Part shown: positions 2,979 to 63,071 of the stretch, piece by piece
How the letters are laid out: the number at the start of each line of letters is the position of its first letter
How positions within the stretch are numbered: position 1 is the first letter of the stretch
DNA from: a virus
DNA: 64,000 nucleotides
IMG/VR virus record: IMGVR_UViG_3300025655_000032
Location: 3,244-67,243 of that record
Reading direction: 5' to 3' (one strand)
Notes under the pieces: generated by a model
What the model saw: only the letters and a program-made list of their open reading frames with translations
The model's database searches: none
Told to the model about the DNA's origin: nothing
Position numbers and translations under genes: made by a program

Positions 2979-3946
2979 TGGCCATGGATGATGCCGCCGT
3001 AGCAGCAATGAACACCGACACCCCCACGCAGGAGGAGTTGGATAACTTCGACGATTCCACTTTGGATAACACCGAGGATACGACCGCACAAGCGAGTTCG
3101 GATGAAGCGGTTGACTCGGCGCCTGCCGCCGAGAATACCGCGGAGGACGAACCCCAAACCCCGGCTGACCCCGAACCTGAAGCGGCACCCCAGGATAAGC
3201 CGGTGCCGGGGTTTATTCCACGCTCTCGCTATAACTATGCCGCCGCAAAGCGCCGGGAAGAGCGAGAGGCACGCCTGCAGGCCGAGTCTGAGGTAGAGCG
3301 CCTTCGCGCGGAGCTGGCGTCGTCAAAGACGCAGGCGCCGGATTACGATAGAGCAATCGGCGATCTGGACTCGCAGATCAGCGACCTTGATACAAAGATC
3401 GACGAGGCGCGTGCCGACGGTGACAACACCCTAGCCAAGCAGCTGCGTGCGCAGCAGCGACAGCTGGAGCGGCATATTGTCGCGTTGGAGATGCAGGCTA
3501 ACGCTCCGCAGCAGGAAGACCCCAATATAGCGACGCAGCACGCGGTTGAACAGATCCGTATCGAGTCGCTGGTGCCGCAGCTTGAGAGCCTGTTCCCCTC
3601 TCTGCAGGAGGGTAACGAGGCCTTCAACGAACCCCTGAGCGATGAGGTGATGGATACGTTCGACCACTTCGCTAAAACACTCCCCCGCGATGAGGCTCTG
3701 CGCCGTGCAGTGTTCTATGTCACAGCCGCTCACGGTATCCAGCCTTTATCGGCGCAAACCTCTGGTCCGCGCAAGACCGACACGAGCAAGAACATCAAGG
3801 CCGCGGCAGCGCAGCCTCCGAGGCTCAACGAGGCCGGCCTCGACTCGGATAAGGGAGGGGCCTCGCAACGCCTCGATGTTATGAAGATGTCACAGGACGA
3901 CTTTGAGCGTCTCGGCGAGCGCGATATCGACGCGATGCTTGTTTAA
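2978..3946 (+). CDS. Capsid scaffolding protein
   Basis: Acidic low-complexity N-terminus, IPRSR motif then coiled coil; lies between portal and capsid; AAGGAG RBS. Confidence 0.75.
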   Translation: MAMDDAAVAAMNTDTPTQEELDNFDDSTLDNTEDTTAQASSDEAVDSAPAAENTAEDEPQTPADPEPEAAPQDKPVPGFIPRSRYNYAAAKRREEREARLQAESEVERLRAELASSKTQAPDYDRAIGDLDSQISDLDTKIDEARADGDNTLAKQLRAQQRQLERHIVALEMQANAPQQEDPNIATQHAVEQIRIESLVPQLESLFPSLQEGNEAFNEPLSDEVMDTFDHFAKTLPRDEALRRAVFYVTAAHGIQPLSAQTSGPRKTDTSKNIKAAAAQPPRLNEAGLDSDKGGASQRLDVMKMSQDDFERLGERDIDAMLV

Positions 3947-3969
3947 TAACGAAAAGTTCTGTTTTGTGG

Positions 3970-3978
3970 TGTTATAAT
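3970..3978 (+). promoter_or_regulatory. Extended -10 sigma70-type promoter (TGTTATAAT)
   Basis: TGnTATAAT just after the scaffold stop and upstream of the GGA hairpin array and capsid gene. Confidence 0.6.
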
Positions 3979-3983
3979 ACGCC

Positions 3984-4122
3984 TGCAAGTAGAACTTATT
4001 ACTACTTACACATGGACGTGAAGCACCGCATGGAAGCGGGGGCTACATGGAAGTGGCTGGTCACATGGAGGTGACCGTTCTCGTGAGGTGAGGGTTACAA
4101 CCCCTCCCTCACGACCTTATTT
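3984..4122 (+). ncRNA. Candidate CsrB/RsmY/RsmZ-like RNA (or capsid 5' leader) with four AUGGA hairpins
   Basis: CAC-ATGGAC-GTG (4009-4020), CCGC-ATGGAA-GCGG (4026-4039), GCTAC-ATGGAA-GTGGC (4042-4057), GGTCAC-ATGGAG-GTGACC (4059-4076), then a long stem TCGTGAGG…CCTCACGA (4081-4114). Confidence 0.7.
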
Positions 4123-4243
4123 CGAATACTCCGCGCGATACAGGAGAGGCGGACGGCACCGCCACAACAACGGCACTTCGCCTAAGCTACGGCGCACAAG
4201 TAGCCATTTTGAGTCCGCACGAAGCGGACACTGTGTTTACTCG

Positions 4244-4259
4244 GCTTCATGGAGGAAGC
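4244..4259 (+). promoter_or_regulatory. Canonical CsrA/RsmA-type hairpin over the capsid RBS
   Basis: GCTTC-ATGGAG-GAAGC, 3 nt before ATG 4263. Confidence 0.7.
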
Positions 4260-4262
4260 AAA

Positions 4263-5369
4263 ATGGCACTCACTAATTTTGCCCGTCTTACCGACCACGA
4301 AAAGAAAGCGTGGTCCATGTCGTTCCAGAAGAACGCCCGCAACAAGTCTTTCTTGACCCGCCTTCTGGGCTCTGGTCAGGACTCCACTGTTCAGCGTATC
4401 ACCGAGCTGAAAAAGTCCAGCAAGGGTACGCAGGCCGTCATCACCCTGGTTCCCGATACCGTCGGCGACGGCGTAGCTGGGGATCGTACGCTGAAGGGTA
4501 ACGAGGAGGCTCTCAGCTCGTCTGAGCAGGTCATCCGCGTTGATCAGCTGCGCCACGCGCACGCCAACGAGGGTCGCATCGCTGACCAGAAGACTATCGT
4601 CAACTTCCGTAAGGAAGCTCGCGACAAGCTGGCCTACTGGATGGCTGACCGTATCGACCAGATGGCCTTCCTTGCCATGTCTGGTGTTGACTTCACCAAG
4701 AAGAACAACGGCGCCGATCGCGTCGGTTCTGAGCTGCAGTACTTGGAGTTCAACAGCGATATCGCCGCTCCGACTTCCAATCGGCATTTCAACTGGAACG
4801 GGGACGCCAACGGCCTGGTTGCCGGCAGCACCACCGCCGACACCATCGCGGTGCCTACCTACGAGATGCTCCTGCACATGAAGGCCAAGGCGCAGGACGA
4901 GTACATCAAGCCGGTTCGCGGCGAGATGGGCACCGAGCTGTACCACGTCTTTATGACCCCGCAGGGTGTCAAGCAGCTGAAGCTGGACGACAAGTTCCAC
5001 AACGCTGTGCGTGACGCCATGCCCCGCACCCCCAACAGCCCGCTGTTCAAGGGGTTCGATACCATCTATATCGACGGCATGGCTATCCACACCCACCGCT
5101 ATGTGTACAACACCTCTGGTGCTGACGCTGGTAGTAAGTGGGGCAGCGCGGGTAACACCGACGGTCAGGCGGTTATCTTCGCCGGCGCACAGGCTCTGGC
5201 CTACGCCGACCTGGGTACCCCCTACTGGGATGAGGAATACGACGACTACCGTAACCGTATGGGTATTGCGGTCGGTAAAATCTTCGGTTTCCTCAAGCCG
5301 CAGTTCCCCTCCGTTGTGCACGGCACCACCGAGGACTTCGGTCTGTTGCGGGTCAACACCGCGATCTAA
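4263..5369 (+). CDS. Major capsid protein (N4-gp56/DUF4043-like, HK97 fold)
   Basis: MALTNFARL…VQRITELKK…GDGVAGDRTLKGNEEAL…IRVDQLRHA pattern; strongly biased codon use; GGAGG RBS gives start 4263. Confidence 0.9.
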   Translation: MALTNFARLTDHEKKAWSMSFQKNARNKSFLTRLLGSGQDSTVQRITELKKSSKGTQAVITLVPDTVGDGVAGDRTLKGNEEALSSSEQVIRVDQLRHAHANEGRIADQKTIVNFRKEARDKLAYWMADRIDQMAFLAMSGVDFTKKNNGADRVGSELQYLEFNSDIAAPTSNRHFNWNGDANGLVAGSTTADTIAVPTYEMLLHMKAKAQDEYIKPVRGEMGTELYHVFMTPQGVKQLKLDDKFHNAVRDAMPRTPNSPLFKGFDTIYIDGMAIHTHRYVYNTSGADAGSKWGSAGNTDGQAVIFAGAQALAYADLGTPYWDEEYDDYRNRMGIAVGKIFGFLKPQFPSVVHGTTEDFGLLRVNTAI

Positions 5370-5854: not shown

Positions 5855-5878
5855 GGGGGTCTCCCGACCCCCCTTTTT
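5855..5878 (+). terminator. Intrinsic terminator
   Basis: GGGGGTC-TCCC-GACCCCC followed by CTTTTT. Confidence 0.7.
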
Positions 5879-14526: not shown

Positions 14527-14535
14527 TGGTATAAT
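14527..14535 (+). promoter_or_regulatory. Extended -10 promoter (TGGTATAAT)
   Basis: TGnTATAAT in the short gap before 14561. Confidence 0.5.
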
Positions 14536-14560
14536 TGTAGCGCGCTACGGAGAGATACAG

Positions 14561-15769
14561 ATGGGACAGAACGGAGTCTATGTCACTACAGAGAAGGACC
14601 CTAATGGAAGGCCTATCCCCTCCTATAGTAATCGTTCCTCTCCGTATTCGGCTAACTTGACAAGTCGTTATAGCAGCACGTCAACGCAACAGCCACAAAC
14701 GCAGCAGAGACCGACGGCACTACGCAGCTTAACGTTTAACAACGCTCGGGCAGGTAGTACCGCACCGGCGCCGCGCGAAGCGCAATACGCTGCGCGCGAA
14801 CGTCAGCTTTTGGAGGGTCTACCGCAGCGTACCAGTCAGTGGGAGCGTGAGCGGCAGATCCACAACGCCGGAGTAGGAGCCCCTCGTAACGACGGTAGCC
14901 ATTGGGACAGCAAACTGACTCGCGCGCAGCGACAAGCTGCTATGGACGCTACGGTTGGTGTTCAAAATAAGCTCCGCGACCAGTTCGCCGCTGAGGATGC
15001 CGCGTACACTAACGCGTACGGCAACCTTACCGGGCGACAAGACGCTGCGGTTATGAACGATCGCAATAACCAGAATGCTCGAAGCCTACAAGGTCTTCGC
15101 AACCAGGCCTTGTTAGAACAGCAGGGGCTGCAAAATCAGGGCTACTTCGACACCGCCGTCGAGAACAACCGCGGTTCCTATGAGCGGCAGGACTTGGCGG
15201 GTAGGGACAGGCATAACCTGGCCAAACTGGATGACGACTACCGTAATCGTTCATTGACTGCGGAGTACGGTACCGACGGTACCGGCGGGTATAGAGGGGC
15301 GGAGCTGGACATACGCCGGGAGGCAGCAACTCGTGAAAACCAGAGGGCCGACGCCGAACTGAGTGACGCGACCAAAAAAAGGTCTATGCAAGAGCTCATC
15401 TCCCTGTTTAATGGTAATGAAGGTGCGGCGTCACAAATTTACAGAGGTCTAACGCCTGAACAACGGCTATTGAGCGGCCCCGATCTTCTCGAAGCCGTTG
15501 CCCCCCTTGCTCCTACAGCGGTCGGCGGTTCTTATGAGTCCGGTCCTCGGCAGTGGATTCCTGGAGTCGATGACTACGCACAGCCTGGTAGCGTAGGGCC
15601 GAACGCGTCTATTGAACCGGCTCCTTGGTACTCTGCACTCGATATGTTCCACGATAGTAATGTGGGGGACCTCATCGCAAGAGGGCGCAATGGTGAGGCG
15701 GTCGGGCTTAGGCGTGAATCCTTCTCCCCCGAGCTTTACAACCGACTCAGATACCCCAATCGCCGATAA
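14561..15769 (+). CDS. Putative internal virion (ejection) protein
   Basis: Q/N/R/A-rich helical protein upstream of the giant internal protein. Confidence 0.5.
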   Translation: MGQNGVYVTTEKDPNGRPIPSYSNRSSPYSANLTSRYSSTSTQQPQTQQRPTALRSLTFNNARAGSTAPAPREAQYAARERQLLEGLPQRTSQWERERQIHNAGVGAPRNDGSHWDSKLTRAQRQAAMDATVGVQNKLRDQFAAEDAAYTNAYGNLTGRQDAAVMNDRNNQNARSLQGLRNQALLEQQGLQNQGYFDTAVENNRGSYERQDLAGRDRHNLAKLDDDYRNRSLTAEYGTDGTGGYRGAELDIRREAATRENQRADAELSDATKKRSMQELISLFNGNEGAASQIYRGLTPEQRLLSGPDLLEAVAPLAPTAVGGSYESGPRQWIPGVDDYAQPGSVGPNASIEPAPWYSALDMFHDSNVGDLIARGRNGEAVGLRRESFSPELYNRLRYPNRR

Positions 15770-18700: not shown

Positions 18701-21700
18701 ACAACAAGAACGACGATGTTCAGCGCGACGAGATCTTTGGTGAGGACGCGGACGGTACAGTAGAGACACGTGCCGGACGTGGCGTAGATCCTGAGCACGC
18801 CTACGCGCGGAAGGCGCAGGCGGAGGCAGACGCTCGACGTCGTGAGGAGGAGCTGGCACAGCAGCGGGCGGAAGAGAAACGCCAAGAGCACAAGGACTGG
18901 GTGGCGAACATGTCCGCGCTGCTGCGGGAGATTGCCTCGCTGATCGGACTGAAGGATGTACGCCTCGTCGGCGTGGAAGAGGCGATCACGATCGTCAACG
19001 AGCGCGCCGACCAAGCTCGACAGCTGGACGCGCTGCGTGTGCTGCGGGCCTCAAAGAGCGCTATGCAGGCTCGTGTCAAGGCGCTGCTGGACGTCGGCCG
19101 CGTGGACGACGCCGTCGCTGCGCTTGACGAGTACGTTGTTGCGCGCAAGCAACACTTCGACGTGAGCGCGGAGCGTCAGGCCCTGGAGCTGCTGTCGAAG
19201 CGTGGTGACCCAACACGCGTGCGTAACATAATCAGCGGGCGCCAGCGCGGGTTCTACGACCGTGCTAGCGGTGCTGTCTACGTGAACCCGTCGCTGCGCG
19301 GAGCCTATGCCACCGCCACCCTCATGCACGAGGTGGGACACGCGGTCATGTACCAGAAGTTCAACGCGCTTAGCGCGAAGGACCAGGCCGCAGTCCTTGA
19401 CGAGTACGAACGCTGGCGCGACCTCTATGGCCGTACCACAGTCACCACGGCGAAGATGTCCAAGCAGGCCATCGCGCACGCTATTGAGGCGGCGGCCTCC
19501 GGTAACCTGGCACGCCTTGACGGTCTGACCGCAGACGAACGTCAAGCGGTGCTGAGCTTTAACGAGTGGTTCGCCGACAACGTAGCGAAGTGGGCCGACA
19601 CCTCTGCGAAGCCCAAGAGCGTCGTCGAGCGCTTCTTCGCCGACGTCGCCGCCGCTATAAAGGCCTTGCTGCGCAGCTTCAAGCTACGCACCGGACAGAA
19701 CTACGAGGCCACTGGCGCAGTCGCTGACTTTATGGATGCGCTAGTCAACCAGGCTGCAGCGCAGCACGCTGCCTACGAGCAGGAGCGTGTAGCCGACGGA
19801 GGCTTTGTAGGCCCGCCACCACCCCCCGGCGGTCGTGGTGGTAGTACACCGCCGCCCCCACCCCCCGGTGGTCGTGGCCTTGCCGGCCGGCTGTCGAACT
19901 GGTACAGCCACTTCCGGCGCGGGCAGCAGTCAGTGCTTAGTACCCGTATGGTAGACGAGGTTCGCGCCTTTATTGAAGAGCATGCCACAGCGGCAGAGAA
20001 GCGTGCGCTGTACCGCGCCGCGCGCAGCGAGGTCATGCAGCGCGCGATGACCAAGGCGCTGGGCAGCAGTGCGCGAGCTGTCCTGCAGATACGTACCGAC
20101 CCAAATATGGCCGCCGCGTACCTGTACGCACTCACCCGTCTTGGCGTTATACAGACCGGACCACAGACTACAAATGTAGTCAACGGGATGGAAGGACGCC
20201 TCAACGACATGTACACACAAGTGTTCGGTGAGCTGTCTGCCGAAGCGCAGTCACAAGCGGTGCTTGATGCTATCGCTGCGGACACCCTACAGCACAACAA
20301 TGACAGCCTGGCGCTACCCGCGGACTTTGTGAACAACCAGCACCGTCGTATGGCACGCGCTATACGCGACAAGGTGATGGGCGCGTACCGTAAGCTGTAC
20401 ACCCCGGTGTTCGGGCTGCCTGCCGAGCGGCTGAACGACATGGACATACCGGTGATGAGCCAGCTGTCCAACCTACTGTTCAACCCAAGCACGGCGCGCG
20501 GTGTACCCCAAGGCTTTCTGCGTGCGAAGTCGCAGAGACGAGCGGAGTTCGACAAGCGCTACCTTGCCTTGGTGAAGGACTTGGATACGGCACAGCGTGA
20601 AGCGATCGCAGCGGTGTTCAACAACCCGGACCTGCTGCGTACGGCGTCGGAAGACGTCCGCACCAAGCACAAAGCGCTTCGCGCGTTGTTCGACGACCTC
20701 TACAAGTACCTCGAGGAGGCCGGCGTCACGTTTGAAAAGCGGCAGAACTACACCCCGTGGATGTTCAACGAGGAGTACGTCACCGCCCACATGGACGAGT
20801 TCGTCGCGCTAGCTTCGAAAGAGCAGTACCAGGGGTACTGGCGGCAGATGAAGGACAAGTGGATCACCGCGCGGCGTGTACCAGCGGACATCACGCTGGA
20901 AGACTTCATTAGGGAGCGCCTGCTTGACCTCACGCGTCCTGAGGGTGTGCAGACAGCCGACACGGAGAGTGGGCACCACAACCCCGGTTTCCGCTTTATG
21001 AACCCTCGTGAGTTGAACTTCCTACAGTCACAGGGTACGGCTGAGGACCGCGTGGAGCTGGCCAAGTTCTTCGAGCCTAGCCTGGACCGTATGCTTGGTA
21101 GCTACATCTCCAGCGCAGTGAAGCGCGCGGAGTTTGCCCGCCGCTTTGGTCTTAACGGTGAGCAGCTCACCAAGATGCTCGACGAGGCCAGAACGGTCTG
21201 GGGCGCCAGCCCGCAAGAACTGGCCTACGCGCAGGCTACCGTGGACTCCGCGCTGGGTATGTACGGTGCGCACACCCGCAAGTGGCTGGAGGATAACTTT
21301 AAGGATACTGAGCTACCCAAGTACCTCAAGAGTATGTTGGTAGGCGAGGGGGCCGGCACCATCAACCCCAAGCTGCAGAACCACATGGGTTGGATCATCA
21401 CCTACCAGAACTATCGGCTGCTGGCACTCTCCGCCTTCATGAGCTTCACCGACCCCTTCACACTGCTGGCGCGTAACGGTAGCTTCCGTGACACGTTCGC
21501 CTCTGTGCGTGAAGCCGCTAAGACGATGTGGGACGCGAGCAGCGGCGATGCGCAGCAGCTCAACGCGCTGCTGGATACAGTCAACACTATCGACTACCAC
21601 AGCATGCACGAAGAAATCATGCGTGAGTTTGGTCAGCACTTCTCGCCCACGCAGCAGAAGCTCAACGACGTGTTGTTTAAATACAACGGTGTGGAGTATC

Positions 21701-22423: not shown

Positions 22424-23155
22424 ATGGGAATGTCGAAAATTATGAGTGATGCGCTTGCTGCTACCAAGCGTGGTGCACAGTATGCCGGAAGCAAGACTAA
22501 GGCCGGCGCAAACTACGCTTGGGACAAGACGAAAGCCGGCGCCCAGGGTTTGGGAAACTCAGTTGCTGCAGGTACAGCTGACGCTCGCCATAACTGGGGG
22601 CAGCTAGGTGGTGGTGCAAGCGGTCTGGCCAAAGAGCAGATGGCTGTTGGCGGCGGCGGTCTAGTAGATGGTGCTATGGATCTGGCCAGTCGTCACCCTG
22701 TACTGACCGGCGCTGCAGGTGCAGGGCTGGCAGCTAGCGGTATGGGCCTGGGTGACGGTGGTGAAGAAGGTCTGGAAGTGGGCGAGCTGGACAACGGCCG
22801 CCGCTTTGTCACGACTCCACAAGGTACTGTGTACGAAGGGCAGATCAGCGAAGAGGAATTCGAGGCCCTGTACAGCGCCGTTGAGTCGCAGACCAGCCCA
22901 TCGGCAGGTGATGTACTGGCTGGTGTTGCGGGTGTTGGGCTGATGGCAGCGAATCCGCTGGCTCGCAAAGCCGGTCGCTATCTAAGCGACGCCACACAAC
23001 GCGGATACGGAAGGGCTAAGAGCGCGATGGCCGGGGGTGGACCTACCCCATCAGCTCACCCGTTTGGCACACCGGCGGGGAGCGCTACCGCTGGTACCTA
23101 CCGTAATCCTCGGTCGAAAGCAGATGTTGACCCCGCAACAGGGATGTACAGGTAG
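22424..23155 (+). CDS. Hypothetical Gly/Ala-rich protein
   Basis: 243 aa in-operon ORF. Confidence 0.55.
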   Translation: MGMSKIMSDALAATKRGAQYAGSKTKAGANYAWDKTKAGAQGLGNSVAAGTADARHNWGQLGGGASGLAKEQMAVGGGGLVDGAMDLASRHPVLTGAAGAGLAASGMGLGDGGEEGLEVGELDNGRRFVTTPQGTVYEGQISEEEFEALYSAVESQTSPSAGDVLAGVAGVGLMAANPLARKAGRYLSDATQRGYGRAKSAMAGGGPTPSAHPFGTPAGSATAGTYRNPRSKADVDPATGMYR

Positions 23156-23164
23156 TTTGTAATA

Positions 23165-23180
23165 GCGACATGGAGGTCGC
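23165..23180 (+). promoter_or_regulatory. Canonical CsrA/RsmA-type hairpin over the endolysin RBS
   Basis: GCGAC-ATGGAG-GTCGC, 1 nt before ATG 23182. Confidence 0.7.
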
Positions 23181-24792: not shown

Positions 24793-24845
24793 GCACAGGA
24801 TTGTGGCTCCTGTGGTCGTGGGTTCGATTCCCATCAGCCACCCCA
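24793..24845 (+). mobile_element. attP core: 3' part of a tRNA-His(GTG) gene
   Basis: CAGGA-TTGTGGC-TCCTG anticodon arm, GTGGGTTCGATTCCCAT T-arm and …AGCCACCCCA end; no D-arm or 5' acceptor strand upstream; about 400 bp from the integrase stop. Confidence 0.85.
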
Positions 24846-24942: not shown

Positions 24943-25019
24943 TGGTAGGCCGGGTGAGATTCGAACTCACAAACAGTGAGACTTAAGCCCACTGGCGTTG
25001 CCAATTAGCCTACCAGCCC
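24943..25019 (-). tRNA. tRNA-Leu(TAA) with short variable loop
   Basis: GGGCTGG-TA-GGCTAATTGGCAACGCC-A-GTGGG-CTTAAGT-CTCAC-TGTTT-GTGAG-TTCGAAT-CTCAC-CCGGCCT-A-CCA. Confidence 0.85.
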
Positions 25020-25199: not shown

Positions 25200-25235
25200 A
25201 TTATACCATTGTCAATTTTCAAAAAATTGACAATG
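25200..25235 (-). promoter_or_regulatory. Extended -10 promoter overlapped by a 13-bp perfect inverted repeat
   Basis: TGGTATAAT (25208-25200) and CATTGTCAATTTT-caa-AAAATTGACAATG (25207-25235). Confidence 0.65.
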
Positions 25236-26457: not shown

Positions 26458-26709
26458 TTATGGTGGTTTTTTGTCAAGCGTTATGCCGTACTGTTCGCCT
26501 CGGGCAATGTTCCACTTGCGTTTTTCTTTCTGCTCGTTTCGATCAGGGGCGGAAATTCCGATACGAAGTTGCCCACGGCTAACCTCTAGCACTGACACAT
26601 AAAAGCATTCTCCAGGTTGAACAATCAACGGTTCGTTGTTTTTAGGCTCAATAACGATGACCTCTCCCGGGCGTCGTGATAAAACAAGACCAGGACGTAT
26701 TTTCTTCAT
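26458..26709 (-). CDS. csrA: Divergent CsrA/RsmA-family RNA-binding translational regulator
   Basis: LVLSRRPGEVIVI…VSVLEVSRGQLRIGISAP…IARGE aligns by eye with CsrA MLILTRRVGETLMI…VTVLGVKGNQVRIGVNAP…VHREE, with two insertions. Confidence 0.85.
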   Translation of the reverse strand: MKKIRPGLVLSRRPGEVIVIEPKNNEPLIVQPGECFYVSVLEVSRGQLRIGISAPDRNEQKEKRKWNIARGEQYGITLDKKPP

Positions 26710-44389: not shown

Positions 44390-44466
44390 TGGCCACGGGC
44401 AGCGGGATTCGAACCCGCGTCATCGGAGGATCAGTCCGAGGGCTGCCAGACTTGCCTATACCCGTG
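44390..44466 (-). tRNA. Non-canonical tRNA-like gene, anticodon GAT (nominally Ile), 8-bp acceptor stem
   Basis: CACGGGTA-TA-GGC-AAGTCTGGCA-GCC-C-TCGGA-CTGATCC-TCCGA-TGAC-GCGGG-TTCGAAT-CCCGC-TGCCCGTG-G-CCA. Confidence 0.75.
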
Positions 44467-57118: not shown

Positions 57119-57157
57119 TGATATAATATTCTCTTGGATATTATTGACACGGAAGTC
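57119..57157 (+). promoter_or_regulatory. Extended -10 promoter of the rightward arm followed by a CsrA-type hairpin
   Basis: TGATATAAT (57119-57127); GAC-ACGGAA-GTC (57146-57157). Confidence 0.55.
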
Positions 57158-57208
57158 TCATACATGAGCCCTTCGCCCGAAGTCCGAAGCCCAAAGACCG
57201 TCGTACTC

Positions 57209-57275
57209 AGCACTTCGGACTACGCACTTCGGACTACGCACTTCGGGGTACGCATTCAGCACTCCGCACTTCGGG
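57209..57275 (+). repeat. Tandem GCACTTCGG(ACTAC) repeats
   Basis: Two exact 14-bp units plus degenerate copies. Confidence 0.7.
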
Positions 57276-57284
57276 CGCTGCCAC

Positions 57285-57884
57285 GTGCCTAGAGTCACGA
57301 AGCTGCAGCAGTTGCAGCGCCAAGCGCTTCGGGCTAAGGGCTACAAGACCTGCTCCGCCTGCGGGCAGACCCATCCCCACGACCAGTTCACGAAGGACGC
57401 CCACGCTTGGGACGGTCTGTTGAGGTTGTGTCGCGGGTGTTTGAAAGAGAAGAACGAACGTTCACGCACGCCTAAGGCCTTTTATTCGGCCAGCACCCAC
57501 AGCCGGGTGAATTACCTGTTGAGCAAGGCCCGCGAGCGGGCTAAGAGCAAAGGTATAGTTTTCGATTTGAGCTTTGAATGGGCCCTCCAACAGCTGGACA
57601 GCCAGGACTACTGCTGCGCGCGCTCCCACATGCCTTTTGTGTTCACCAACTCGCGTATTCTGGGGGGTGCTACCTCACCCTGGGCGCTGTCTTTTGATCG
57701 GATCGATTCTGCGAAGGGGTATACGGAGGACAACGTACAGCTTGTTTGCCTGATGTACAACTTCGCTAAGAACGCGTTTGATGACGCTGACGTCCTACTG
57801 TTTGCCAGCGCCCTCGCCGCCGCCCACATGGAGCCTATCCTAGAGCTGCATGCTGAGCTGCAAGCACCAACGAGTAGCCCGTGA
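57285..57884 (+). CDS. HNH-like endonuclease with N-terminal Zn-finger
   Basis: C..C…C..C; S.DRIDSAKGYTEDNVQLVC…N.AK. Confidence 0.75.
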   Translation: MPRVTKLQQLQRQALRAKGYKTCSACGQTHPHDQFTKDAHAWDGLLRLCRGCLKEKNERSRTPKAFYSASTHSRVNYLLSKARERAKSKGIVFDLSFEWALQQLDSQDYCCARSHMPFVFTNSRILGGATSPWALSFDRIDSAKGYTEDNVQLVCLMYNFAKNAFDDADVLLFASALAAAHMEPILELHAELQAPTSSP

Positions 57885-58435: not shown

Positions 58436-58733
58436 GCTTGCGTGTATTGTCAGTGGGAAGGGCACCTATGCCGTGGCGCAGCCCCTCGCTTTTACAAACC
58501 AGGATGAAGGGGAGGAGGTCAGGCCGTTCTTCGCTCTTGACCATGACGAGGCGCAAGTACTGATGGACGACCTGTGGCGGTGCGGTATACGCCCGACTGA
58601 GGGGGCGGGTAGCGCCGGCGCGCTGGCCGCCACACAGGCGCACCTTAAGGACCTGCAGCAGCTGATGGTGTGGGCCTACGACCCTAAGAACGGTCCGTGG
58701 GTCATGCAGCAGGGGGAGAGCGAGGATGGCTGA
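58395..58733 (+). CDS. Hypothetical protein
   Basis: AQ.LMDDLW.CGIRPTEG.GSAG…HL.DL pattern. Confidence 0.6.
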   Translation: MLRAKSGNWNGTIELACIVSGKGTYAVAQPLAFTNQDEGEEVRPFFALDHDEAQVLMDDLWRCGIRPTEGAGSAGALAATQAHLKDLQQLMVWAYDPKNGPWVMQQGESEDG

Positions 58734-61700
58734 GGATACACCCGAGCAGCCACCCGAGCAGCCACCGCCACCCGAGGAGAAGGACAGCGCCCTTAGTCCT
58801 CAGTACACCGACAGCGGGCGGCGTATATACGACCGTTGGCCGCTGGGGCAGTACGTGTGCAACATGTGCGAGCGTGAGCTCGGCGTCAGCGACTTCAGGA
58901 GTAACAAGACGACGTGCATACTGTGTCAGGCGCAGGAGTCGTCTGACAAGCTGGCGCGCGCGGTGGCGAAGCGTAAGGCCACACGGCGCTACGCGAACAA
59001 GGTGGAGCGCGGTAAGGACCTTAACCGCCGGTCTAAGGCGGCGGCCAAGAAGAAGCGTGCGGAGGTGGCTAAGGAGCGTGCGGCGAAGGTGCGTGAGGCC
59101 GAGGCCACCGTCGCCAAGCAGGTCAAGATTATAGAGCAGATCCACGACGTTAAGCTGCGGGAGGAGGCGAACGCCAAGCAGAAAGAGCGGCTCGCCGAGG
59201 CCGAGGCGCGTAAGGAGCTGGCCAGCCGTGAGCTGGCCCGGCGTCGTCTGCTGCACTACGTTGAGCGGAACGTGCCGGGGTACGAGGCTGGGTGGGTGCA
59301 CGAGGACATCTGTCGGCGCCTGGAGCGCTTTATGCACGACGTCGAGGATCGTAAGAGTCCGCGCCTTATGATATGGGTGCCGCCGAGGCACGGTAAACAG
59401 CTGCCCCATAGCACGCCAGTGCTGACACCCTCTGGGTGGCGCACTCACGGCGAGCTAGAGGTGGGTGATGAGGTGTTTGGGCCAGATGGCAGTATCCGGA
59501 CTGTGGTCTCCGTATCGGCTCCTTCGGTGGCCGAGTACGAGCTTGAGTTTACCAACGGGACGCGGATCAAGGCCCACGCTAATCACGAGTGGACTGTGTA
59601 CCAACGCGGGAACGGCCGGGTTCGTGGTTGGAAGACCGTCGAGACGCGTTACCTTGCAGGGCGTAGAGTTTGGAGCGGTGGTCGGGCTGTTTTCCAACTC
59701 CCCCCTGTCGACGCGCTGCAATTTCCTTCTCGCGTATATGAAATGCCTCCCTACGTCCTCGGCGCATGGCTTGGTGACGGGTCCTCAATAGCCCCACTGA
59801 TAACACATGGTGCGGTAGATACGGCCGTCATTAGCGCGGTTTGCCAGTACGGCTATACGATGACGAGCCAAAACGTCCACGCAACCACCGGCGTGCGGGG
59901 ATCGCGGTTCGGTAAGGTTGTGGGCAATCCGTCTCGTATGGCCACCGAGCTTCGGTCGCTGGGGGTGTGGGGGGACAAGCACATACCCGACGCCTACAAG
60001 AGGGGAGATATAACACAGCGGTTGCAGCTACTCGCCGGTTTGATCGATACCGACGGGCACGTAGAACCGGCCACCGGTCGCGTTCGTGTAATAACGGGGT
60101 CTCGGCGCCTGGCTGAGGACATTCATGAGGTGGCCACTACACTGGGTTTTGCGCCGTATATAACATCCCAGCCCCCAAAACTTAGTTCTAGCGGTATCCA
60201 GGGTACACAGACCGTATACACCATAGGTTTTCAGCCGACCCAATACATCCCTACTCGAATGCCTCAGAAGCAGGTACTGCGTTTTGCCCCTCGACGCCGC
60301 GTTGGTATTCGTGCGGTTCGTCGTTGTGAGCCGGAGGTCGGTCGGTGTATACAGATTGACGCTGCCGACGGGCTCTACCTTGTCGGCAAGACCTTGATCC
60401 CCACCCACAACAGCGAGATCGCCAGTACGCAGTTCCCAAGCTGGGTGCTGGGGCATCACCCTGACTGGGAGTTTATAGCGACCAGCTACGCTCTCGACCT
60501 GCCATTAGGCTTCAGTCGTAAGATCCGCGCCCGTGTACAGTCGCCTGAGTACAGTGTGCTGTTCCCTAAGACCGAGCTGTCCAAGGACTCGCAGAGCGCA
60601 GAGAGCTGGCGCACTACGGCAGGCGGAGGGTTCCGCGCGGCAGGTGTGGGTGGTGGTATCACCGGTATGGGCGCACACATACTGGTCATTGATGACCCGG
60701 TCAAGGACCAGGAGGAGGCCGACTCTGAGACCGTGCGTGAGAAGGTGTGGTCGTGGTTCGGCTCAACGGCCTACACCCGACTGGCACCGGGTGGTGGTGT
60801 ACTTATTATTCAGTGTATGACGGGTGACACGCCCGTGCTTATGGCTGACGGTACTGAGCGACCGCTTTCAGCTGTGCGCGTCGGTGATTATGTGGCGACG
60901 TACGACGAGGGACGACTGCGGCACGCCAGAGTGTGTCAGTGGGGCTCTAATGGTGATGATTCTATCCTAAAAATCACGACGAACTCGGGTAAAATAGTAC
61001 GGGCTAACGGGAGACACCCGTTCCTGGTTTCTCATAAAGGAGAGCTCGAGTGGATACAGGCGAAGGATTTACAACCGACCCAGCAAATCGTCGCCGTAAA
61101 GGACAGCGTGGTAAGTGGTCAGGGGTTGTTTGCCAAATGGAAGGTTGCGACGAGCCCGTCTCCGCTCGCGGCTATTGTAAATCGCACTATAACAAAGTTA
61201 AGTGGGCTTCGGGCAATCGCCCCCCTTCAGCTAATCCGACGTCTCGGCGCGAGGCGCACCTTAAGCACCGCTACGGTATCAACCTTGCGGAGTACAACTC
61301 CCTGCTGGACAAGCAAGGTGGTCGCTGCGCTATTTGCGGCGAACTTCCCACTTCCAGCAATACCCGTGCGCACTGGGGGAACAAGCTTTGCGTCGACCAC
61401 TGCCACGGTTCTGGAGAGGTTCGCGGATTACTCTGCAACGACTGTAACCTCGCTGTTGGGTACGCTAAAACAGAAGCTACAGCGCGCGCGGTTGCAGATT
61501 ACCTCCGACTTCACTCTGGACCCTATCGTAAGGATTGAGGCTGACGGAGTGGCCGAGGTCTTTGACGTCCAGATAGAGGGGACGGAGAATTTTATAGCTA
61601 ACGGGCTAGTCAGCCATAATACTCGCTGGCATGACGATGACCTCAGCGGGCGTATTGAGCGCACGATGATGGAGGGCTTTAAGGAGTTCGAAGTGCTGTG

Positions 61701-62715
61701 CGTGGACGCCGAGCAGGCGAAGGCCGAAGCCCGTAGTGAGGAGGACGTCGCTGCTGCCGCACGTATGCACTACGAGGCCTACAAGTTTCGAGAGACTATC
61801 GACAGGTGGCATATCGTCAAGTACCCAGCCATCGCAGTGCATGATGAGTACCTTAACAAGACCAGCGGTATTATTCAGGTCAACGACGGCACAGCTCCGC
61901 ACGACTTTACTTCTTCATCCTACCGACTGCTGCGTAAAAAGGGCAGGGCGCTTCACCCCGCTCGTTTCCCGCTGACGTTGCTGCAGAAGTACAAGCGCAC
62001 GCTGCAGCCCCGTCACTGGTCGGCACTGTACCAACAGAACCCTGTGCCCGACGAGGGCGCGTTCTTCACTAGCGACATGTTCCGCTTCCGCCCTACACTC
62101 CCCGACTGGCGTGAGATGACCGTCATGTGTGCGTGGGACTTGGCGGTTGGTGTACGTACAACGAACGACTGGACCGTCGGTGTAGTGGGTGCGCTGGACT
62201 GGGAAGATAACCTGTGGATACTCGACATGGTCCGTGGGCGTTGGCAGACTCACGACATAGCGCGTTATATCCACGATACACATCTGCGTTACGACGCGTC
62301 GGTGACGGGTATTGAGAAAGGGCAGTTGGAGCTGGCCATTATGCCGCAGCTGCAACGTATCATGAAGGAGAAGAACCAGTACATTGCGCTGGCCGAGGGG
62401 CAGGCCGCGCTCAAGCCTATCACTGACAAAGTGATGCGTGCACGCCCACTGCAGGGGCGTATGCAGCAGGGTAAGGTGCTATTTCCGTCCGACCAGCCTT
62501 GGGTAGACTCGCTGCGTAATGAATTCTTACGTTTCCCCACCGGCACCCACGACGATATTGTTGATGCCTGCTCCTGGGTGGCGCGTATGTTTATGAATAC
62601 GCAACCTCCTACTCGCCCTCGCGCTCAAAGCGAAGGGTTACCACAAGGTGTTACCAGTTGGAAAGACCGCCTGCGTGGTATAATGCAAGAGCCAAAGAAC
62701 TTCATGTCACGGTGA
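58726..62715 (+). CDS. terL: Terminase large subunit containing two inteins
   Basis: PPRHGK|S Walker A, IDDPVK Walker B, Q|TRWH.DD, LYQQNP, WDLA, HDDIVDA. Confidence 0.92.
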   Translation: MAEDTPEQPPEQPPPPEEKDSALSPQYTDSGRRIYDRWPLGQYVCNMCERELGVSDFRSNKTTCILCQAQESSDKLARAVAKRKATRRYANKVERGKDLNRRSKAAAKKKRAEVAKERAAKVREAEATVAKQVKIIEQIHDVKLREEANAKQKERLAEAEARKELASRELARRRLLHYVERNVPGYEAGWVHEDICRRLERFMHDVEDRKSPRLMIWVPPRHGKQLPHSTPVLTPSGWRTHGELEVGDEVFGPDGSIRTVVSVSAPSVAEYELEFTNGTRIKAHANHEWTVYQRGNGRVRGWKTVETRYLAGRRVWSGGRAVFQLPPVDALQFPSRVYEMPPYVLGAWLGDGSSIAPLITHGAVDTAVISAVCQYGYTMTSQNVHATTGVRGSRFGKVVGNPSRMATELRSLGVWGDKHIPDAYKRGDITQRLQLLAGLIDTDGHVEPATGRVRVITGSRRLAEDIHEVATTLGFAPYITSQPPKLSSSGIQGTQTVYTIGFQPTQYIPTRMPQKQVLRFAPRRRVGIRAVRRCEPEVGRCIQIDAADGLYLVGKTLIPTHNSEIASTQFPSWVLGHHPDWEFIATSYALDLPLGFSRKIRARVQSPEYSVLFPKTELSKDSQSAESWRTTAGGGFRAAGVGGGITGMGAHILVIDDPVKDQEEADSETVREKVWSWFGSTAYTRLAPGGGVLIIQCMTGDTPVLMADGTERPLSAVRVGDYVATYDEGRLRHARVCQWGSNGDDSILKITTNSGKIVRANGRHPFLVSHKGELEWIQAKDLQPTQQIVAVKDSVVSGQGLFAKWKVATSPSPLAAIVNRTITKLSGLRAIAPLQLIRRLGARRTLSTATVSTLRSTTPCWTSKVVAALFAANFPLPAIPVRTGGTSFASTTATVLERFADYSATTVTSLLGTLKQKLQRARLQITSDFTLDPIVRIEADGVAEVFDVQIEGTENFIANGLVSHNTRWHDDDLSGRIERTMMEGFKEFEVLCVDAEQAKAEARSEEDVAAAARMHYEAYKFRETIDRWHIVKYPAIAVHDEYLNKTSGIIQVNDGTAPHDFTSSSYRLLRKKGRALHPARFPLTLLQKYKRTLQPRHWSALYQQNPVPDEGAFFTSDMFRFRPTLPDWREMTVMCAWDLAVGVRTTNDWTVGVVGALDWEDNLWILDMVRGRWQTHDIARYIHDTHLRYDASVTGIEKGQLELAIMPQLQRIMKEKNQYIALAEGQAALKPITDKVMRARPLQGRMQQGKVLFPSDQPWVDSLRNEFLRFPTGTHDDIVDACSWVARMFMNTQPPTRPRAQSEGLPQGVTSWKDRLRGIMQEPKNFMSR
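59398..60411 (+). mobile_element. Intein 1 (class 3, Gln at position 1) with LAGLIDADG endonuclease, 338 aa
   Basis: QLPHSTPVLT…HEW…LGAWLGDG…LAGLIDTDG…RCIQI…PTHN|S; inserted in Walker A. Confidence 0.88.
60814..61620 (+). mobile_element. Intein 2 (Cys1…HN|T), 269 aa, no in-frame endonuclease
   Basis: CMTGDTPVLMADG…NGRHPF…VFDVQIEGTENFIANGLVSHN|T. Confidence 0.9.
61050..61538 (+). CDS. Endonuclease VII-family homing endonuclease nested out of frame in intein 2
   Basis: RYGI…Y..LL..QGGRCAIC…LCVDHCH..G.VRGLLC..CN..VG; own AAGGAG RBS before GTG. Confidence 0.85.
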   Translation: MDTGEGFTTDPANRRRKGQRGKWSGVVCQMEGCDEPVSARGYCKSHYNKVKWASGNRPPSANPTSRREAHLKHRYGINLAEYNSLLDKQGGRCAICGELPTSSNTRAHWGNKLCVDHCHGSGEVRGLLCNDCNLAVGYAKTEATARAVADYLRLHSGPYRKD

Positions 62716-63071
62716 ATTGCGCATGGAAGTGCCTGTCTGTATCAACATAGACCTGCAAGTGGATGATGTTGCCCTAGCACCGTCAGTACTGGCGGAAGCG
62801 CTCCACGCCATGTCCGTCGAACTCAGCGATACGCAGAGTGTCCCCGAGGCGTTCACTTCCGTTGACGCATGGGTAGATTGGCCGTACGACAGCATGGACC
62901 CTTTATTTCGATGATCGCGTCTATTAAACAGCTATTGCACGCTTTGTACGGTTCATGGCGTTCGCTGCTGCTGTCGTTACAACAGGTGCAGCATAGAAAT
63001 ACGGCGATAAAGCGCGTCCAGACGTTATTCAAGCGGCGTTGACGCTGCAGACCATACCATAAAGGGTATCG

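Follow-up and report, generated by a model that had tools for sequence, protein, structure and literature searches.

The SELEX consensus of the RNA ligands of E. coli CsrA is RUACARGGAUGU, in which ACA and GGA are invariant and GU is nearly invariant (Dubey et al. 2005, as cited in PMC7652899). Six-nucleotide loops in which AC is paired with GU were present in 44 of the 55 ligands. These ligands typically have at most 4 contiguous base pairs, and very stable stems may disfavour binding (PMC7652899). Bridging of two sites by CsrA works over distances from 10 to 63 nt, the optimal intersite distance being given as '>18 nt' (PMC7652899). Leaders with 4 to 6 CsrA sites, combining a high-affinity upstream hairpin with a low-affinity site at the Shine-Dalgarno (SD) sequence, are established for iraD, pgaA and glgC, and the flhDC mRNA is protected by CsrA through two 5'-proximal sites (PMC7652899).

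Genes for CsrA are also encountered in phages, namely in 30 of the 2517 phage genomes of one survey (Sobrero and Valverde 2020, PMC7366521). In 2025, knock-down of the csrA homologue of phage PTXU04 was reported to result in smaller plaques, and the authors of that work state that the role of phage csrA in the life cycle had previously been untested (PMC11879866). For phage CsrA proteins, a literature search, in which the csrA survey was represented by its main text, yielded no RNA target, partner or antagonist; nor was a Csr/Rsm decoy of phage origin encountered.

Here, the region in front of the major capsid gene of an uncultured temperate phage, which is present at freshwater and estuary sites, is analysed. 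It is located in a stretch of 64,000 nt of the IMG/VR record IMGVR_UViG_3300025655_000032, referred to below as the window. Judged from its sequence, the region 3970-4262 is best read as a promoter of the host sigma70 type, followed by the 5' leader of the late capsid transcript with a multi-site CsrA-family module. It seems fairly probable that this leader binds a protein of the CsrA family.

Organization of the capsid leader

The original prediction for this region consisted of an extended -10 promoter, a 5' stem, four consecutive hairpins with AUGGAN hexaloops on different stems, a long stem with a weak U-rich tail, further stems, and a fifth AUGGAG hairpin over the capsid ribosome-binding site (RBS). 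All of these elements are present where they had been placed (Table 1). Hairpins 3 and 4 have base 4058 in common, and the motifs of the array follow each other at a spacing of 17-18 nt. The capsid SD sequence GGAGG, 9 nt before the ATG, covers the loop (AUGGAG) and the 3' arm of the last hairpin, so that a GGA site lies over the SD as in CsrA-repressed leaders. The capsid protein itself has 48.8% identity with those of phages KPP25 and phiR18, and 27-29% with the capsid proteins of Bcep22, PEp14 and Parlo.

Table 1. Features of the capsid leader and of related elements elsewhere in the window (positions are those of the window)
Feature	Position	Strand	Remarks
Extended -10 promoter TGTTATAAT	3970-3978	+	Predicted transcription start at about 3985
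5'-terminal stem-loop (AAGUAG...CUACUU) of the predicted transcript	3987-4007	+	In MFE and centroid structures of the 141-nt and 286-nt folds
Hairpin 1 cacAUGGACgug, motif ACAUGGACGU	4009-4020	+	-2.4 kcal/mol
Hairpin 2 ccgcAUGGAAgcgg	4026-4039	+	-7.7 kcal/mol
Hairpin 3 ggcuacAUGGAAguggcu, motif ACAUGGAAGU	4041-4058	+	-7.2 kcal/mol
Hairpin 4 uggucacAUGGAGgugaccg, i.e. (u)ggucacAUGGAGgugacc(g), motif ACAUGGAGGU	4058-4077	+	-9.9 kcal/mol
13-bp G+C-rich stem-loop (4081-4114) with tail CCUUAUUUCG	4081-4125	+	-22.7 kcal/mol, z -5.2
Structured leader spacer with further stems (e.g. 4213-4229)	4126-4243	+	From folding
Operator-type hairpin gcuucAUGGAGgaagc	4244-4259	+	-6.2 kcal/mol; 3' end 3 nt from the capsid ATG (4263)
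Major capsid protein gene	4263-5369	+	phrog_334 major head protein, E 3.3e-72
agaACGGAGucu hairpin	14568-14579	+	Loop starts 35 nt past the -10 of promoter TGGTATAAT (14527)
Endolysin leader: ACAGGGAUGU (23138-23147) and hairpin gcgacAUGGAGgucgc (23165-23180) over the start region	23138-23180	+	
Phage csrA-like gene, 83 aa	26458-26709	-	Pfam CsrA PF02599, 33.5 bits (cut-off 27)
gacACGGAAguc hairpin	57146-57157	+	Loop starts 21 nt past the -10 of promoter TGATATAAT (57119)
gcgcAUGGAAgugc hairpin, just past terL	62719-62732	+	Loop starts 38 nt past the -10 of promoter TGGTATAAT (62676)

For the whole leader of 286 nt, a folding energy of -110.4 kcal/mol (z -4.89) is predicted. In the equilibrium fold of a 141-nt RNA, hairpins 2 and 4 are formed almost completely (pair probabilities 0.97-0.98 and 0.99-1.0), and hairpins 1 and 3 are found at 0.04 and 0.08-0.10, respectively. 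The latter two are thus minor conformers, outcompeted by an alternative nested fold that is more stable by 2.6 kcal/mol (-54.1 versus -51.5). The GGA triplets are mostly unpaired in both 141-nt folds, that of hairpin 1 with a probability of 0.94-0.96. Across the sites the unpaired probability is 0.74-1.0, with the exception of the first G of hairpin 3 (0.11).

The element at 4081-4125 is a candidate weak terminator, attenuator or structural insulator; its stem was not called in a terminator scan. The same scan detected a clear terminator with a clean T run 3' of the capsid gene (5855-5872). Contigs from 4 sequencing runs are identical to the window over 3900-4103 and hence show no variation there, the part 4115-4155 being uncovered in those runs, and one diverged contig has a leader that is unlike that of the window upstream of 4251. 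Two reading frames in the region were considered as coding and dropped: a frame of 20 codons (4012-4074), which lacks an SD and is not preserved in the closest relative, and an ORF at 4088-4276, rejected on reading by eye only.

Non-randomness of the hairpin array

The sequence CATGGANG occurs 15 times in the window, where 6.72 +/- 2.35 occurrences are expected, and none of 100 shuffles reaches this number; 5 of the 15 sites fall in the capsid-leader region. All five ANGGAN hexamers between 3985 and 4262 are loops closed by at least 3 pairs, as compared to 28 of 370 in the rest of the window. In first-order Markov simulations of 278 nt, 0.067 ANGGAN-loop hairpins arise on average, at least 3 were obtained once in 20,000 simulations, and 5 never. 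Since five are observed, a chance origin of the cluster is excluded. The sequence ACANGGANGT is likewise overrepresented (8 sites versus 1.66 +/- 1.36 expected, reached by 0 of 100 shuffles); three of its sites are in the array, two upstream of the endolysin gene and one after the promoter at 57119.

An alignment of 9 fixed-loop hairpins of this genome displays a constant loop on varying stems. In this alignment, in which the 5 hairpins from the capsid leader were not chosen for their stems and the 4 from elsewhere were, 83.3% of the cells pair, versus 58.4% in shuffles. The covariation score amounts to 0.731 versus 0.274; none of 500 shuffles attains the former, and slid controls stay at or below 0.15. 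It could be imagined that the array is a DNA-level repeat, for example a set of sites for a DNA-binding protein, and indeed the CATGGA core forms a direct repeat with regular spacing. A constant centre with unrelated inverted-repeat flanks is, however, suited to a reader of RNA loops, the period of 17-18 bp is off the helical repeat, and in the closest relative the element is preserved through compensatory changes. Taken together with the simulations, this makes a chance cluster or a DNA repeat extremely unlikely, and the array is considered below as an RNA element.

Match to CsrA ligands and to the Csr/Rsm families

Hairpins 1, 3 and 4 read ACA-U-GGA-N-GU in the SELEX geometry, with all invariant letters present. 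The same holds for the hairpin in the endolysin leader, where ACA, GGA and GU are also found in a hexaloop closed by AC:GU. Hairpin 2 (GCA..GC) and the hairpin over the capsid RBS (UCA..GA) agree with the SELEX ligands only in part. Two differences from these ligands are apparent: the fourth position of the consensus loop is U here instead of R, and the stems of hairpins 3 and 4, with 6-7 bp, are longer than most.

The designation 'CsrB/RsmY-like' was not borne out by covariance models. Rfam searches of the whole window at the gathering threshold gave 3 tRNA matches and no Csr/Rsm family, and at E <= 10 the region 3900-4300 gave 4 unrelated weak matches, none of them to Csr/Rsm families (CsrB, CsrC, RsmX, RsmY, PrrB_RsmZ and others). 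Hence, of the Csr/Rsm reading, the part that concerns the ligands stands, with three of the four loops (ACA-N-GGA-N-GU) belonging to the highest-affinity class of CsrA/Rsm sites, and the part that would imply homology to these RNA families does not.

GGA-loop hairpins at other promoters of the genome

The promoter in front of the leader is one of several. There are 6 exact TGNTATAAT promoter sites in the window, where 0.66 +/- 0.81 are expected and none of 100 shuffles has as many; each of the 6 is positioned between genes or at an operon boundary. Each of the four on the plus strand is followed by a hairpin with an A[CU]GGAN loop that starts 21-38 nt past the -10, an arrangement found at a random position with a probability of 0.0077 and at neither of the two minus-strand promoters. 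Near the promoter at 14527, a second ACGGAG forms an SD at 14547. The endolysin gene (phrog_894, E 8.4e-28) has two GGA sites 30 nt apart in its leader, the classical two-site layout.

These positions allow for an activating role as in flhDC, in which GGA hairpins at the 5' end would be occupied by CsrA or its phage homologue, and the rightward, structural transcripts would thereby be shielded from 5'-end-dependent RNase E, with four copies on the capsid mRNA as the largest output. Such a role would account for the presence, at all four plus-strand promoters, of a GGA-loop hairpin in about the first 30 nt of the RNA, and for the first motif of the closest relative, which begins at the predicted 5' end. 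On the other hand, the capsid transcript already has its own 5' stem (3987-4007), so that four extra hairpins would be unneeded, and the operator-type hairpins over the SDs of capsid and endolysin are left unexplained. We regard 5'-end protection as quite unlikely, and continue with a leader that is read by a CsrA-type protein to control translation.

The genome contains a second, larger class of RBS hairpins with a fixed loop, either AUAAAG (10 hairpins) or ACAAAG (6), counted as hexaloops on stems of at least 4 pairs. They are mostly located on minus-strand early genes and have the SD in the 3' arm.

Candidate readers in phage and host

The phage encodes a CsrA-like protein of its own, a candidate reader of the hairpins or a competitor of the host reader, the gene of which adjoins xis and int. 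This protein keeps positions that are key to RNA contact, with the beta1 LxLxRR segment and the equivalent of Arg44, and L4, L6, R8 and R46 (alignment numbering, canonical reference) are invariant in an alignment of 5 sequences. Compared to canonical CsrA it has two insertions, one of them beside the GGA-reading segment. Because of these insertions, its specificity may differ from the canonical one. Modelled as a homodimer, it scores 0.68 versus 0.00 for the best control, with a contact agreement of at least 87% and a pLDDT of at least 67; of 30 proteins solved as one-chain pairs, 20 attained that mark, as did 1 of 23 with a single-chain structure. The model supports the formation of a homodimer, with the proviso that the pass may reflect likeness only, since CsrA dimers have already been solved. 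The sequence is very divergent: among 1.84 billion representatives only 4 proteins, itself included, are found at E <= 0.001. A search of viral contigs gave no match and a word-based search only the protein itself. With tblastn, the phage collection yielded nothing for this protein and one unannotated record for the CsrA of G003, a relative of the phage.

As to the host, the attP core of 53 nt (24793-24845) has an identical counterpart in the 3' part of the tRNA-His of 3 gammaproteobacterial MAGs, 2 of which encode a canonical CsrA (94.4 bits); none was seen in the third. Over the fold, the candidate host CsrA hardly differs from that of E. coli. The host lineage is therefore likely to be gammaproteobacterial and CsrA-bearing, this 53-nt tRNA identity being the sole ground for the assignment. 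The covariance model of CsrB had no match in the three candidate host MAGs, and that of PrrB_RsmZ had sub-threshold matches only, which look like plain terminators and were discarded. A GGA-rich stretch, retrieved by a pattern search in G006 and considered as a host sponge, was set aside as well, being unlike the phage array.

Since the genome also has A-rich fixed-loop hairpins at its RBSs, a phage factor with a general preference for hairpin loops must be reckoned with. More broadly, the array might have a non-canonical reader: another RNA-binding protein of the phage, the phage CsrA alone with altered specificity, or no reader in the case of structural hairpins for stabilization or processing. 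GGA would then be a by-product of the SD-containing, fixed-loop hairpins of the whole genome. The AUAAAG/ACAAAG class fits this idea, as do the insertions of the phage CsrA near its RNA surface and the situation in the relatives G002 and G003, which encode CsrA-like proteins but lack fixed-loop hairpins and GGA arrays. Against it, none of the array hairpins is situated at a ribosome-binding site or has a 3' arm that resembles an SD, and three of them match all invariant positions of the CsrA SELEX ligands, which goes beyond a bare GGA. We assign a rather low probability to a non-canonical reader, and a protein of the CsrA family is retained as the reader in what follows.

Conservation in related phages

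The prediction that the hairpins are conserved in related phages proved right for the nearest relative, which shares promoter, motif and RBS hairpin, and wrong for more distant ones, from which the array is absent. In the closest relative, L285, the N-terminal 193 residues of the capsid are 81% identical. L285 retains TGTTATAAT, with aTGTTATAAT standing after its scaffold gene, followed by two ACAUGGAAGU motifs 19 nt apart. One of these motifs is in a hairpin, gucacAUGGAAgugac, that is nearly identical to hairpin 4, and the RBS hairpin ggacAUGGAGgucc has the same loop with 3 stem pairs altered on both sides in such a way that pairing is kept. Between the motifs and the capsid RBS of L285, a gene of 459 nt for an endonuclease of the VII/HNH type (phrog_1035) is present. 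Because of this intervening gene, the upstream hairpins of L285 are at the 5' end and away from the operator, a layout that, as far as can be judged from sequence, is more easily reconciled with a function as decoy or at the 5' end than with bridging to the SD. Downstream of the L285 motifs no terminator-like element or U-tailed counterpart was seen, and the sequence reads on into the endonuclease gene.

In none of 39 IMG/VR relatives is the capsid gene preceded by more than one CANGGANG motif, and 28 of 29 metagenome relatives have no comparable element; the capsid proteins of these relatives without array (39 and 28, respectively) are 44-68% identical. A search of genome contigs with the capsid protein gave no match. 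In pattern scans of IMG/VR, three copies of CATGGANG were found at 119 loci at least, nearly all of which are in-frame acidic coding repeats without stems; L078 is, among the matches listed, the only perfect tandem repeat of one hairpin. When one gap was forced off multiples of three, 66 loci were obtained, mostly representing one conserved coding stretch. Only L231 among them has four GCANGGANGC motifs at 16-17 nt from each other; they are flanked by terL and by a portal gene that belongs to the PHROG of the portal of this phage. The GGA string of L231 was nevertheless rejected as support, since it is not predicted to fold better than shuffles (z 0.10). Around it, Rfam gave no Csr/Rsm match.

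In the distant relatives Bcep22, PEp14 and Parlo, a gene annotated as 'CsrA-like regulator' lies directly upstream of the major head gene, which, by analogy, suggests a link between CsrA and capsid expression in the wider group. The slot of csrA in these phages is the one held by the array here. A conserved ANGAN-loop hairpin in their csrA-capsid spacers was dropped as a candidate, as folding prefers larger leader structures.

A possible mechanism for the timing of late proteins

The hairpin array probably provides this uncultured temperate phage with control over the timing of its capsid and lysis proteins. Binding, the identity of the binder, the direction of the effect and titration are what we infer in the following scheme. 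The four array hairpins, with their AUGGAN loops closed by C-G, would act as high-affinity decoys, and the capsid SD hairpin, with the same loop and weaker flanks, as an operator. A similar operator would be present on the endolysin start. As long as late transcription is low, a CsrA dimer would keep the operators shut; this dimer could be the canonical CsrA of the host, the divergent homologue of the phage, or both. Firing of the late promoter on many genome copies would give rise to an abundant RNA, the 5' decoys of which titrate CsrA, and translation of capsid and endolysin would then be freed in a switch-like manner. The decoys could operate within the leader, or as a piece of about 135 nt that ends at the 4081-4114 stem. 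A discrete sRNA of about 135 nt, one of the two forms originally predicted, is unproven; because the U tail of the stem is poor and the stem is missing in L285, a discrete sponge RNA does not seem to be a conserved feature. In the form given here, the CsrA-binding decoy mechanism is plausible, if somewhat short of probable.

It is tempting to extend this scheme to a self-contained circuit of the Csr type, although we consider the extension unlikely. The phage would have its own CsrA beside xis and int, operators on the RBSs of capsid and endolysin and at the 5' end of all transcripts that run rightward, and a four-site decoy on the most abundant late RNA. Virion and lysis proteins would be silenced by this lock in the lysogen or early in infection, and the lock would open abruptly when late transcription gets ahead of the protein. 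In Bcep22, PEp14 and Parlo, where csrA directly precedes the capsid gene, the same ancestral circuit for capsid control would then be arranged in another way.

The locus offers short, synthesisable candidate RNA sites on identifiable genes (capsid and endolysin), together with a candidate decoy, a candidate phage reader and a candidate host reader. With sites, decoy and readers at hand, the role of phage CsrA therefore becomes testable. If the decoy model is true, it represents a new viral way of timing late protein synthesis.

Comparison with known Csr/Rsm systems

With the decoy sRNAs CsrB, CsrC, RsmX, RsmY and RsmZ, the array shares several GGA loops in small hairpins on one short RNA and a strong 3' stem. 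As in these decoys, the sites are better than those on the presumed targets, and their copy number varies among relatives (4 here and 2 in L285). Unlike them, the array is encoded by a phage and forms part of the capsid leader, its putative terminator is weak and not conserved, and there are only four sites. The promoter is different too. The GacA/UvrY box upstream of Csr/Rsm sRNA promoters is a palindrome resembling TGTAAGN6CTTACA. Here, an extended -10 promoter is present instead, and no site of this kind with up to 3 mismatches was found upstream of 3970, the nearest matches being inside the array.

A second comparison can be made with mRNA leaders that are controlled by CsrA (glgC, pgaA and iraD) or, in the case of hcnA, by RsmE. 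The likeness consists of a GGA site over the SD with extra hairpin sites upstream (PMC7652899), and the endolysin leader repeats the layout with two sites. It could thus be imagined that the capsid leader is a multi-site repressor leader acting in cis, in which CsrA dimers are brought to the capsid mRNA by its own upstream hairpins and either raise the occupancy of the weak SD site or promote termination at 4081-4114, with the result that capsid synthesis is repressed or attenuated until CsrA activity falls. The array is in the 5' UTR of a gene the SD of which bears the same loop, precedents are known from iraD, pgaA and glgC (PMC7652899), the weak terminator favours read-through into the capsid gene, and the 30-nt spacing in the endolysin leader is of the classical type. 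However, 184 nt separate the motif of hairpin 4 (4064) from that at the SD (4248), which is beyond the bridging range of 10-63 nt; no second site lies within this range of the capsid SD, and it is the 17-18 nt spacing inside the array that fits it. Furthermore, the array sites are tandem, regularly spaced and near the consensus, nearer than the operator, which is the usual relation between decoy and target. Finally, L285 keeps both motifs and the RBS hairpin in spite of the inserted gene that separates these sites from its capsid gene. Repression in cis is for these reasons judged unlikely, and titration by the array is the reading that we prefer.

A third comparison concerns the csrA genes of phages and plasmids. 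The phage described here resembles those in the main text of the survey (PMC7366521), as well as Bcep22, PEp14 and Parlo, in that it carries a gene of the CsrA family. In contrast to the latter three, its csrA is next to xis and int, and the place in front of the capsid gene is taken by hairpins that look like the binding sites of such a protein.

The capsid leader

Every feature that the original prediction had described in the leader of the major capsid gene (4263..5369, plus strand) is found in place. The four hairpins of the array all have a C-G closing pair under an AUGGAN hexaloop, on stems of 3, 4, 6 and 7 pairs with unrelated sequences, and a fifth hairpin, the putative operator, covers the capsid Shine-Dalgarno (SD) sequence. 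The motif CATGGANG occurs at 15 sites in the window versus 6.72 +/- 2.35 expected, five of them in this leader. In the capsid-leader region 5/5 ANGGAN hexamers form hairpin loops, versus 28/370 elsewhere; simulated sequences of the same composition have a mean of 0.067 such hairpins, and five were reached in none of 20,000 trials. In the equilibrium fold, hairpins 2 and 4 are near-certain; a nested fold, more stable by 2.6 kcal/mol, competes with hairpins 1 and 3. Under both folds the GGA triplets are mostly unpaired.

Coordinates of capsid leader features and of genes for CsrA-family proteins
Feature	Sequence	Position	Strand	Remarks
Extended -10 element TGTTATAAT	Window	3970-3978
5' stem	Window	3987-4007
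Array hexaloops AUGGAC, AUGGAA, AUGGAA, AUGGAG	Window	4011, 4029, 4046, 4064		Motif starts, in order
13-pair stem	Window	4081-4114		-22.7 kcal/mol; tail CCUUAUUUCG
Operator-type hairpin gcuucAUGGAGgaagc	Window	4244-4259		SD GGAGG 9 nt ahead of capsid ATG at 4263
CsrA-family gene, 83 aa	Window	26458-26709	minus	Pfam 33.5 bits, cut-off 27
CsrA-like regulator gene	L237 (Bcep22)	19669-19863		Directly upstream of major head gene
CsrA-like regulator gene	L239 (PEp14)	3658-3849		Directly upstream of major head gene
CsrA-like regulator gene	L240 (Parlo)	3684-3866		Directly upstream of major head gene
Short CsrA-like protein, 58-61 aa	L161 (relative G003)	1468-1653
Short CsrA-like protein, 58-61 aa	L162 (relative G002)	1492-1668

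The SELEX consensus of E. coli CsrA is given as RUACARGGAUGU, with six-nucleotide loops in 44 of 55 ligands and AC pairing with GU (PMC7652899). Hairpins 1, 3 and 4 read ACA-U-GGA-N-GU, in the exact geometry of these ligands. Judged by sequence, the array sites are more specific than a GGA in a loop. The motif ACANGGANGT has 8 sites in the window versus 1.66 expected, a number reached in 0/100 shuffles. Two of them, 30 nt apart, precede the endolysin gene, one being the hairpin gcgacAUGGAGgucgc over the endolysin start, and another directly follows the promoter TGATATAAT at 57119. When nine such hairpins of this genome are aligned, the loop is constant and the stems covary; 83.3% of cells pair, a count in which the share of the four hairpins from outside the capsid region is biased, as these were picked for having stems. 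The covariation score is 0.731 versus 0.274 in shuffles (reached by 0/500), and slid controls give at most 0.15.

Promoters and a second class of loops

Exact TGNTATAAT is present at six sites versus 0.66 expected, all at gene boundaries. Each of the four plus-strand promoters of this type is followed by an A[CU]GGAN-loop hairpin with its loop start 21-38 nt past the -10 (chance for a random position, 0.0077), as is neither of the two on the minus strand. Since all four rightward promoters have a GGA-loop hairpin, the array is best read as the amplified version of a 5'-end mark that all rightward transcripts of this phage carry. The leader past the promoter at 57119 also has four to five GCACUUCGG(ac/g)uacg-like repeat units (57190-57280).

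Minus-strand early genes have RBS hairpins with another fixed loop, AUAAAG or ACAAAG. This second class (AUAAAG, ACAAAG, AUAUAG) extends over 26431-56575, mostly on the minus strand; its hairpins lie 13-19 nt ahead of many early-gene starts and carry the SD in the 3' arm (cgcucAUAAAGgagcg is one example). When hexaloops with stems of at least 4 pairs are counted, ATAAAG leads with 10 and ACAAAG has 6. The presence of a second loop class in the same genome would favor a reader of fixed-loop hairpins other than canonical CsrA, which we consider unlikely.

Conservation among relatives

In a set of 39 IMG/VR relatives (capsid identity 44-68%), not one has more than a single CANGGANG motif upstream of the capsid gene. 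L003, the closest relative in that set, carries different hairpins in a spacer of 160 nt. Thirty metagenome relatives were compared, 29 with the capsid start included, and nothing comparable is present in 28 of these 29. The exception is L285, a contig of 2636 bases and the closest relative found (over its first 193 residues the capsid is 81% identical). Here, aTGTTATAAT after the scaffold gene is followed by a pair of ACAUGGAAGU motifs at a spacing of 19 nt, the latter of them forming the hairpin gucacAUGGAAgugac, nearly identical to hairpin 4. More stems follow, none with a U tail, and then comes an insertion between the GGA motifs and the hairpin at the capsid RBS: a gene of endonuclease VII/HNH type (phrog_1035; 1578-2036) that has an AUAUAG-loop RBS hairpin of its own. 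The window encodes phrog_1035 too, at 57285-57884. Directly ahead of the capsid ATG stands ggacAUGGAGgucc, which has the same loop as gcuucAUGGAGgaagc and three stem pairs changed on both sides with pairing kept. Because L285 has kept the motifs and compensated the operator stem, the element is, by this comparison, real, and selection acts on it within a narrow lineage. The number of copies varies, the upstream motifs staying with the promoter and the operator with the capsid gene. Over the array, contigs of 2025 estuary runs do not differ from the window and so add no variation. In the unrelated IMG/VR contig L231 (9225-9300, minus strand), four GCANGGANGC motifs 16-17 nt apart lie between terL and a portal gene (phrog_156, as in the window); this string is predicted to fold no better than shuffles.

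The phage, its candidate host and their CsrA proteins

The source record is rated complete by CheckV (67,243 bases, of which the window takes 3244-67243). The plus-strand left arm codes for portal, scaffold-like, major head, head-closure and further virion proteins, and the minus-strand arm contains replication genes, ribonucleotide reductase, the CsrA-family gene, a DUF4224 (excisionase-like) gene and the integrase. Further products of the plus-strand arm are a 2211-aa virion-type protein and an endolysin. The large terminase gene (58726-62715; 1329 aa) has intein splicing, Hint and LAGLIDADG homing-endonuclease domains, a sign of one intein at least and probably of two. There are genes for tRNA-Leu(UAA) at 24943-25019, downstream of an exact TGGTATAAT promoter (25200-25208, minus strand), and for tRNA-Ile(GAU) at 44390-44466. 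Pseudomonas phages KPP25 and phiR18 have capsid proteins 48.8% identical to that of the window phage; for Burkholderia phage Bcep22, Erwinia phage PEp14 and Serratia phage Parlo the identity is 27-29%.

The phage CsrA is very divergent: only four proteins, itself included, reach E <= 0.001 among 1.84 billion representatives, and tblastn against 50,697 phage records gives no match. It retains the beta1 Leu/Arg residues and the Arg44-equivalent of canonical CsrA and has two insertions. A homodimer model scores 0.68 (best control 0.00), a mark reached by 20/30 proteins solved as one-chain pairs and by 1/23 of those solved as single chains. Agreement between runs covers at least 87% of contacts, and pLDDT is 67 or higher. 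The model thus supports a homodimer, as likeness rather than proof, because CsrA dimers have already been solved.

Positions 24793-24845 (53 bases), beside the integrase gene, match the 3' part of tRNA-His base for base in three gammaproteobacterial MAGs, of which two carry the label Chromatiales. Beyond either end of the stretch the sequences diverge, as they do around an attP core, and ARAGORN calls the stretch a low-scoring tRNA-His. It is likely to be the attP core and a clue to the host. A canonical CsrA (94.4 bits), of standard type in its first fifty residues, is present in two of these three MAGs. In the candidate host MAG G006, contig C221 (L251 1300-1600, minus strand) has a G+C-rich, non-coding-looking stretch of repeated CAGGGAAGG or CAAGGAAGG units, possibly a native Csr/Rsm decoy RNA, which the CsrB and PrrB_RsmZ models did not detect.

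According to Sobrero and Valverde (PMC7366521), csrA is found in 30 of 2517 phage genomes, including Bcep22, BcepIL02, DC1, PEp14 and Parlo, and the Burkholderia hosts have no chromosomal csrA. In Bcep22, PEp14 and Parlo, three genera distant from the window phage by capsid, an annotated 'CsrA-like regulator' gene lies between the scaffold-like and major head genes, the very slot that is filled by the array in the window. In the relatives G002 and G003 (capsid about 48% identical), which have neither fixed-loop hairpins nor arrays, a CsrA-like gene directly follows the DNA polymerase gene, a third genomic position of csrA in this phage group. G001, KPP25 and AP1 have no CsrA-like gene. Knocking down the csrA homologue of phage PTXU04 by CRISPRi-ART is described as giving smaller plaques (PMC11879866).

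A possible regulatory mechanism

Four CsrA-type sites close to the consensus lie in the late-gene leader, and weaker ones cover the capsid and endolysin start regions. Our tentative preference, somewhat short of an even chance, is a decoy-and-operator model, for which we infer binding, expression and direction of effect from the DNA. A CsrA-family dimer would close the operators; the abundant late leader, whole or as a fragment that stops at the 13-pair stem, would titrate the dimer, and translation would then be released. Cis repression of the pgaA or glgC type (PMC7652899), though less probable, is a serious rival. Dual-site bridging by CsrA is reported to span 10-63 nt, the best spacing between sites being written '>18 nt' (PMC7652899); the array has a period of 17-18 nt and is separated from the SD by 184 nt, outside that range. 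A decoy is favored over bridging in cis because of this gap, because the inserted L285 gene separates the motifs from the operator, and because the operator is a poorer site than those upstream. A 5' protection like that of flhDC (PMC7652899) is a serious rival too, at a lower probability still. The discrete sRNA of about 135 nt in the original prediction, titrating CsrA/RsmA, retains the strong 13-pair stem in its favor, but the U tail is poor, the terminator scan called no terminator there and L285 has no counterpart.

In literature searches, neither a CsrA decoy encoded by a phage nor an RNA targeted by a phage CsrA came up. The label CsrB/RsmY-like did not survive covariance-model comparison, which places the element in no Rfam Csr/Rsm family, and a search with the GacA-box motif gave no such site upstream of the array promoter. 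The element may work in a way that is akin to Csr/Rsm decoys or to multi-site CsrA leaders.
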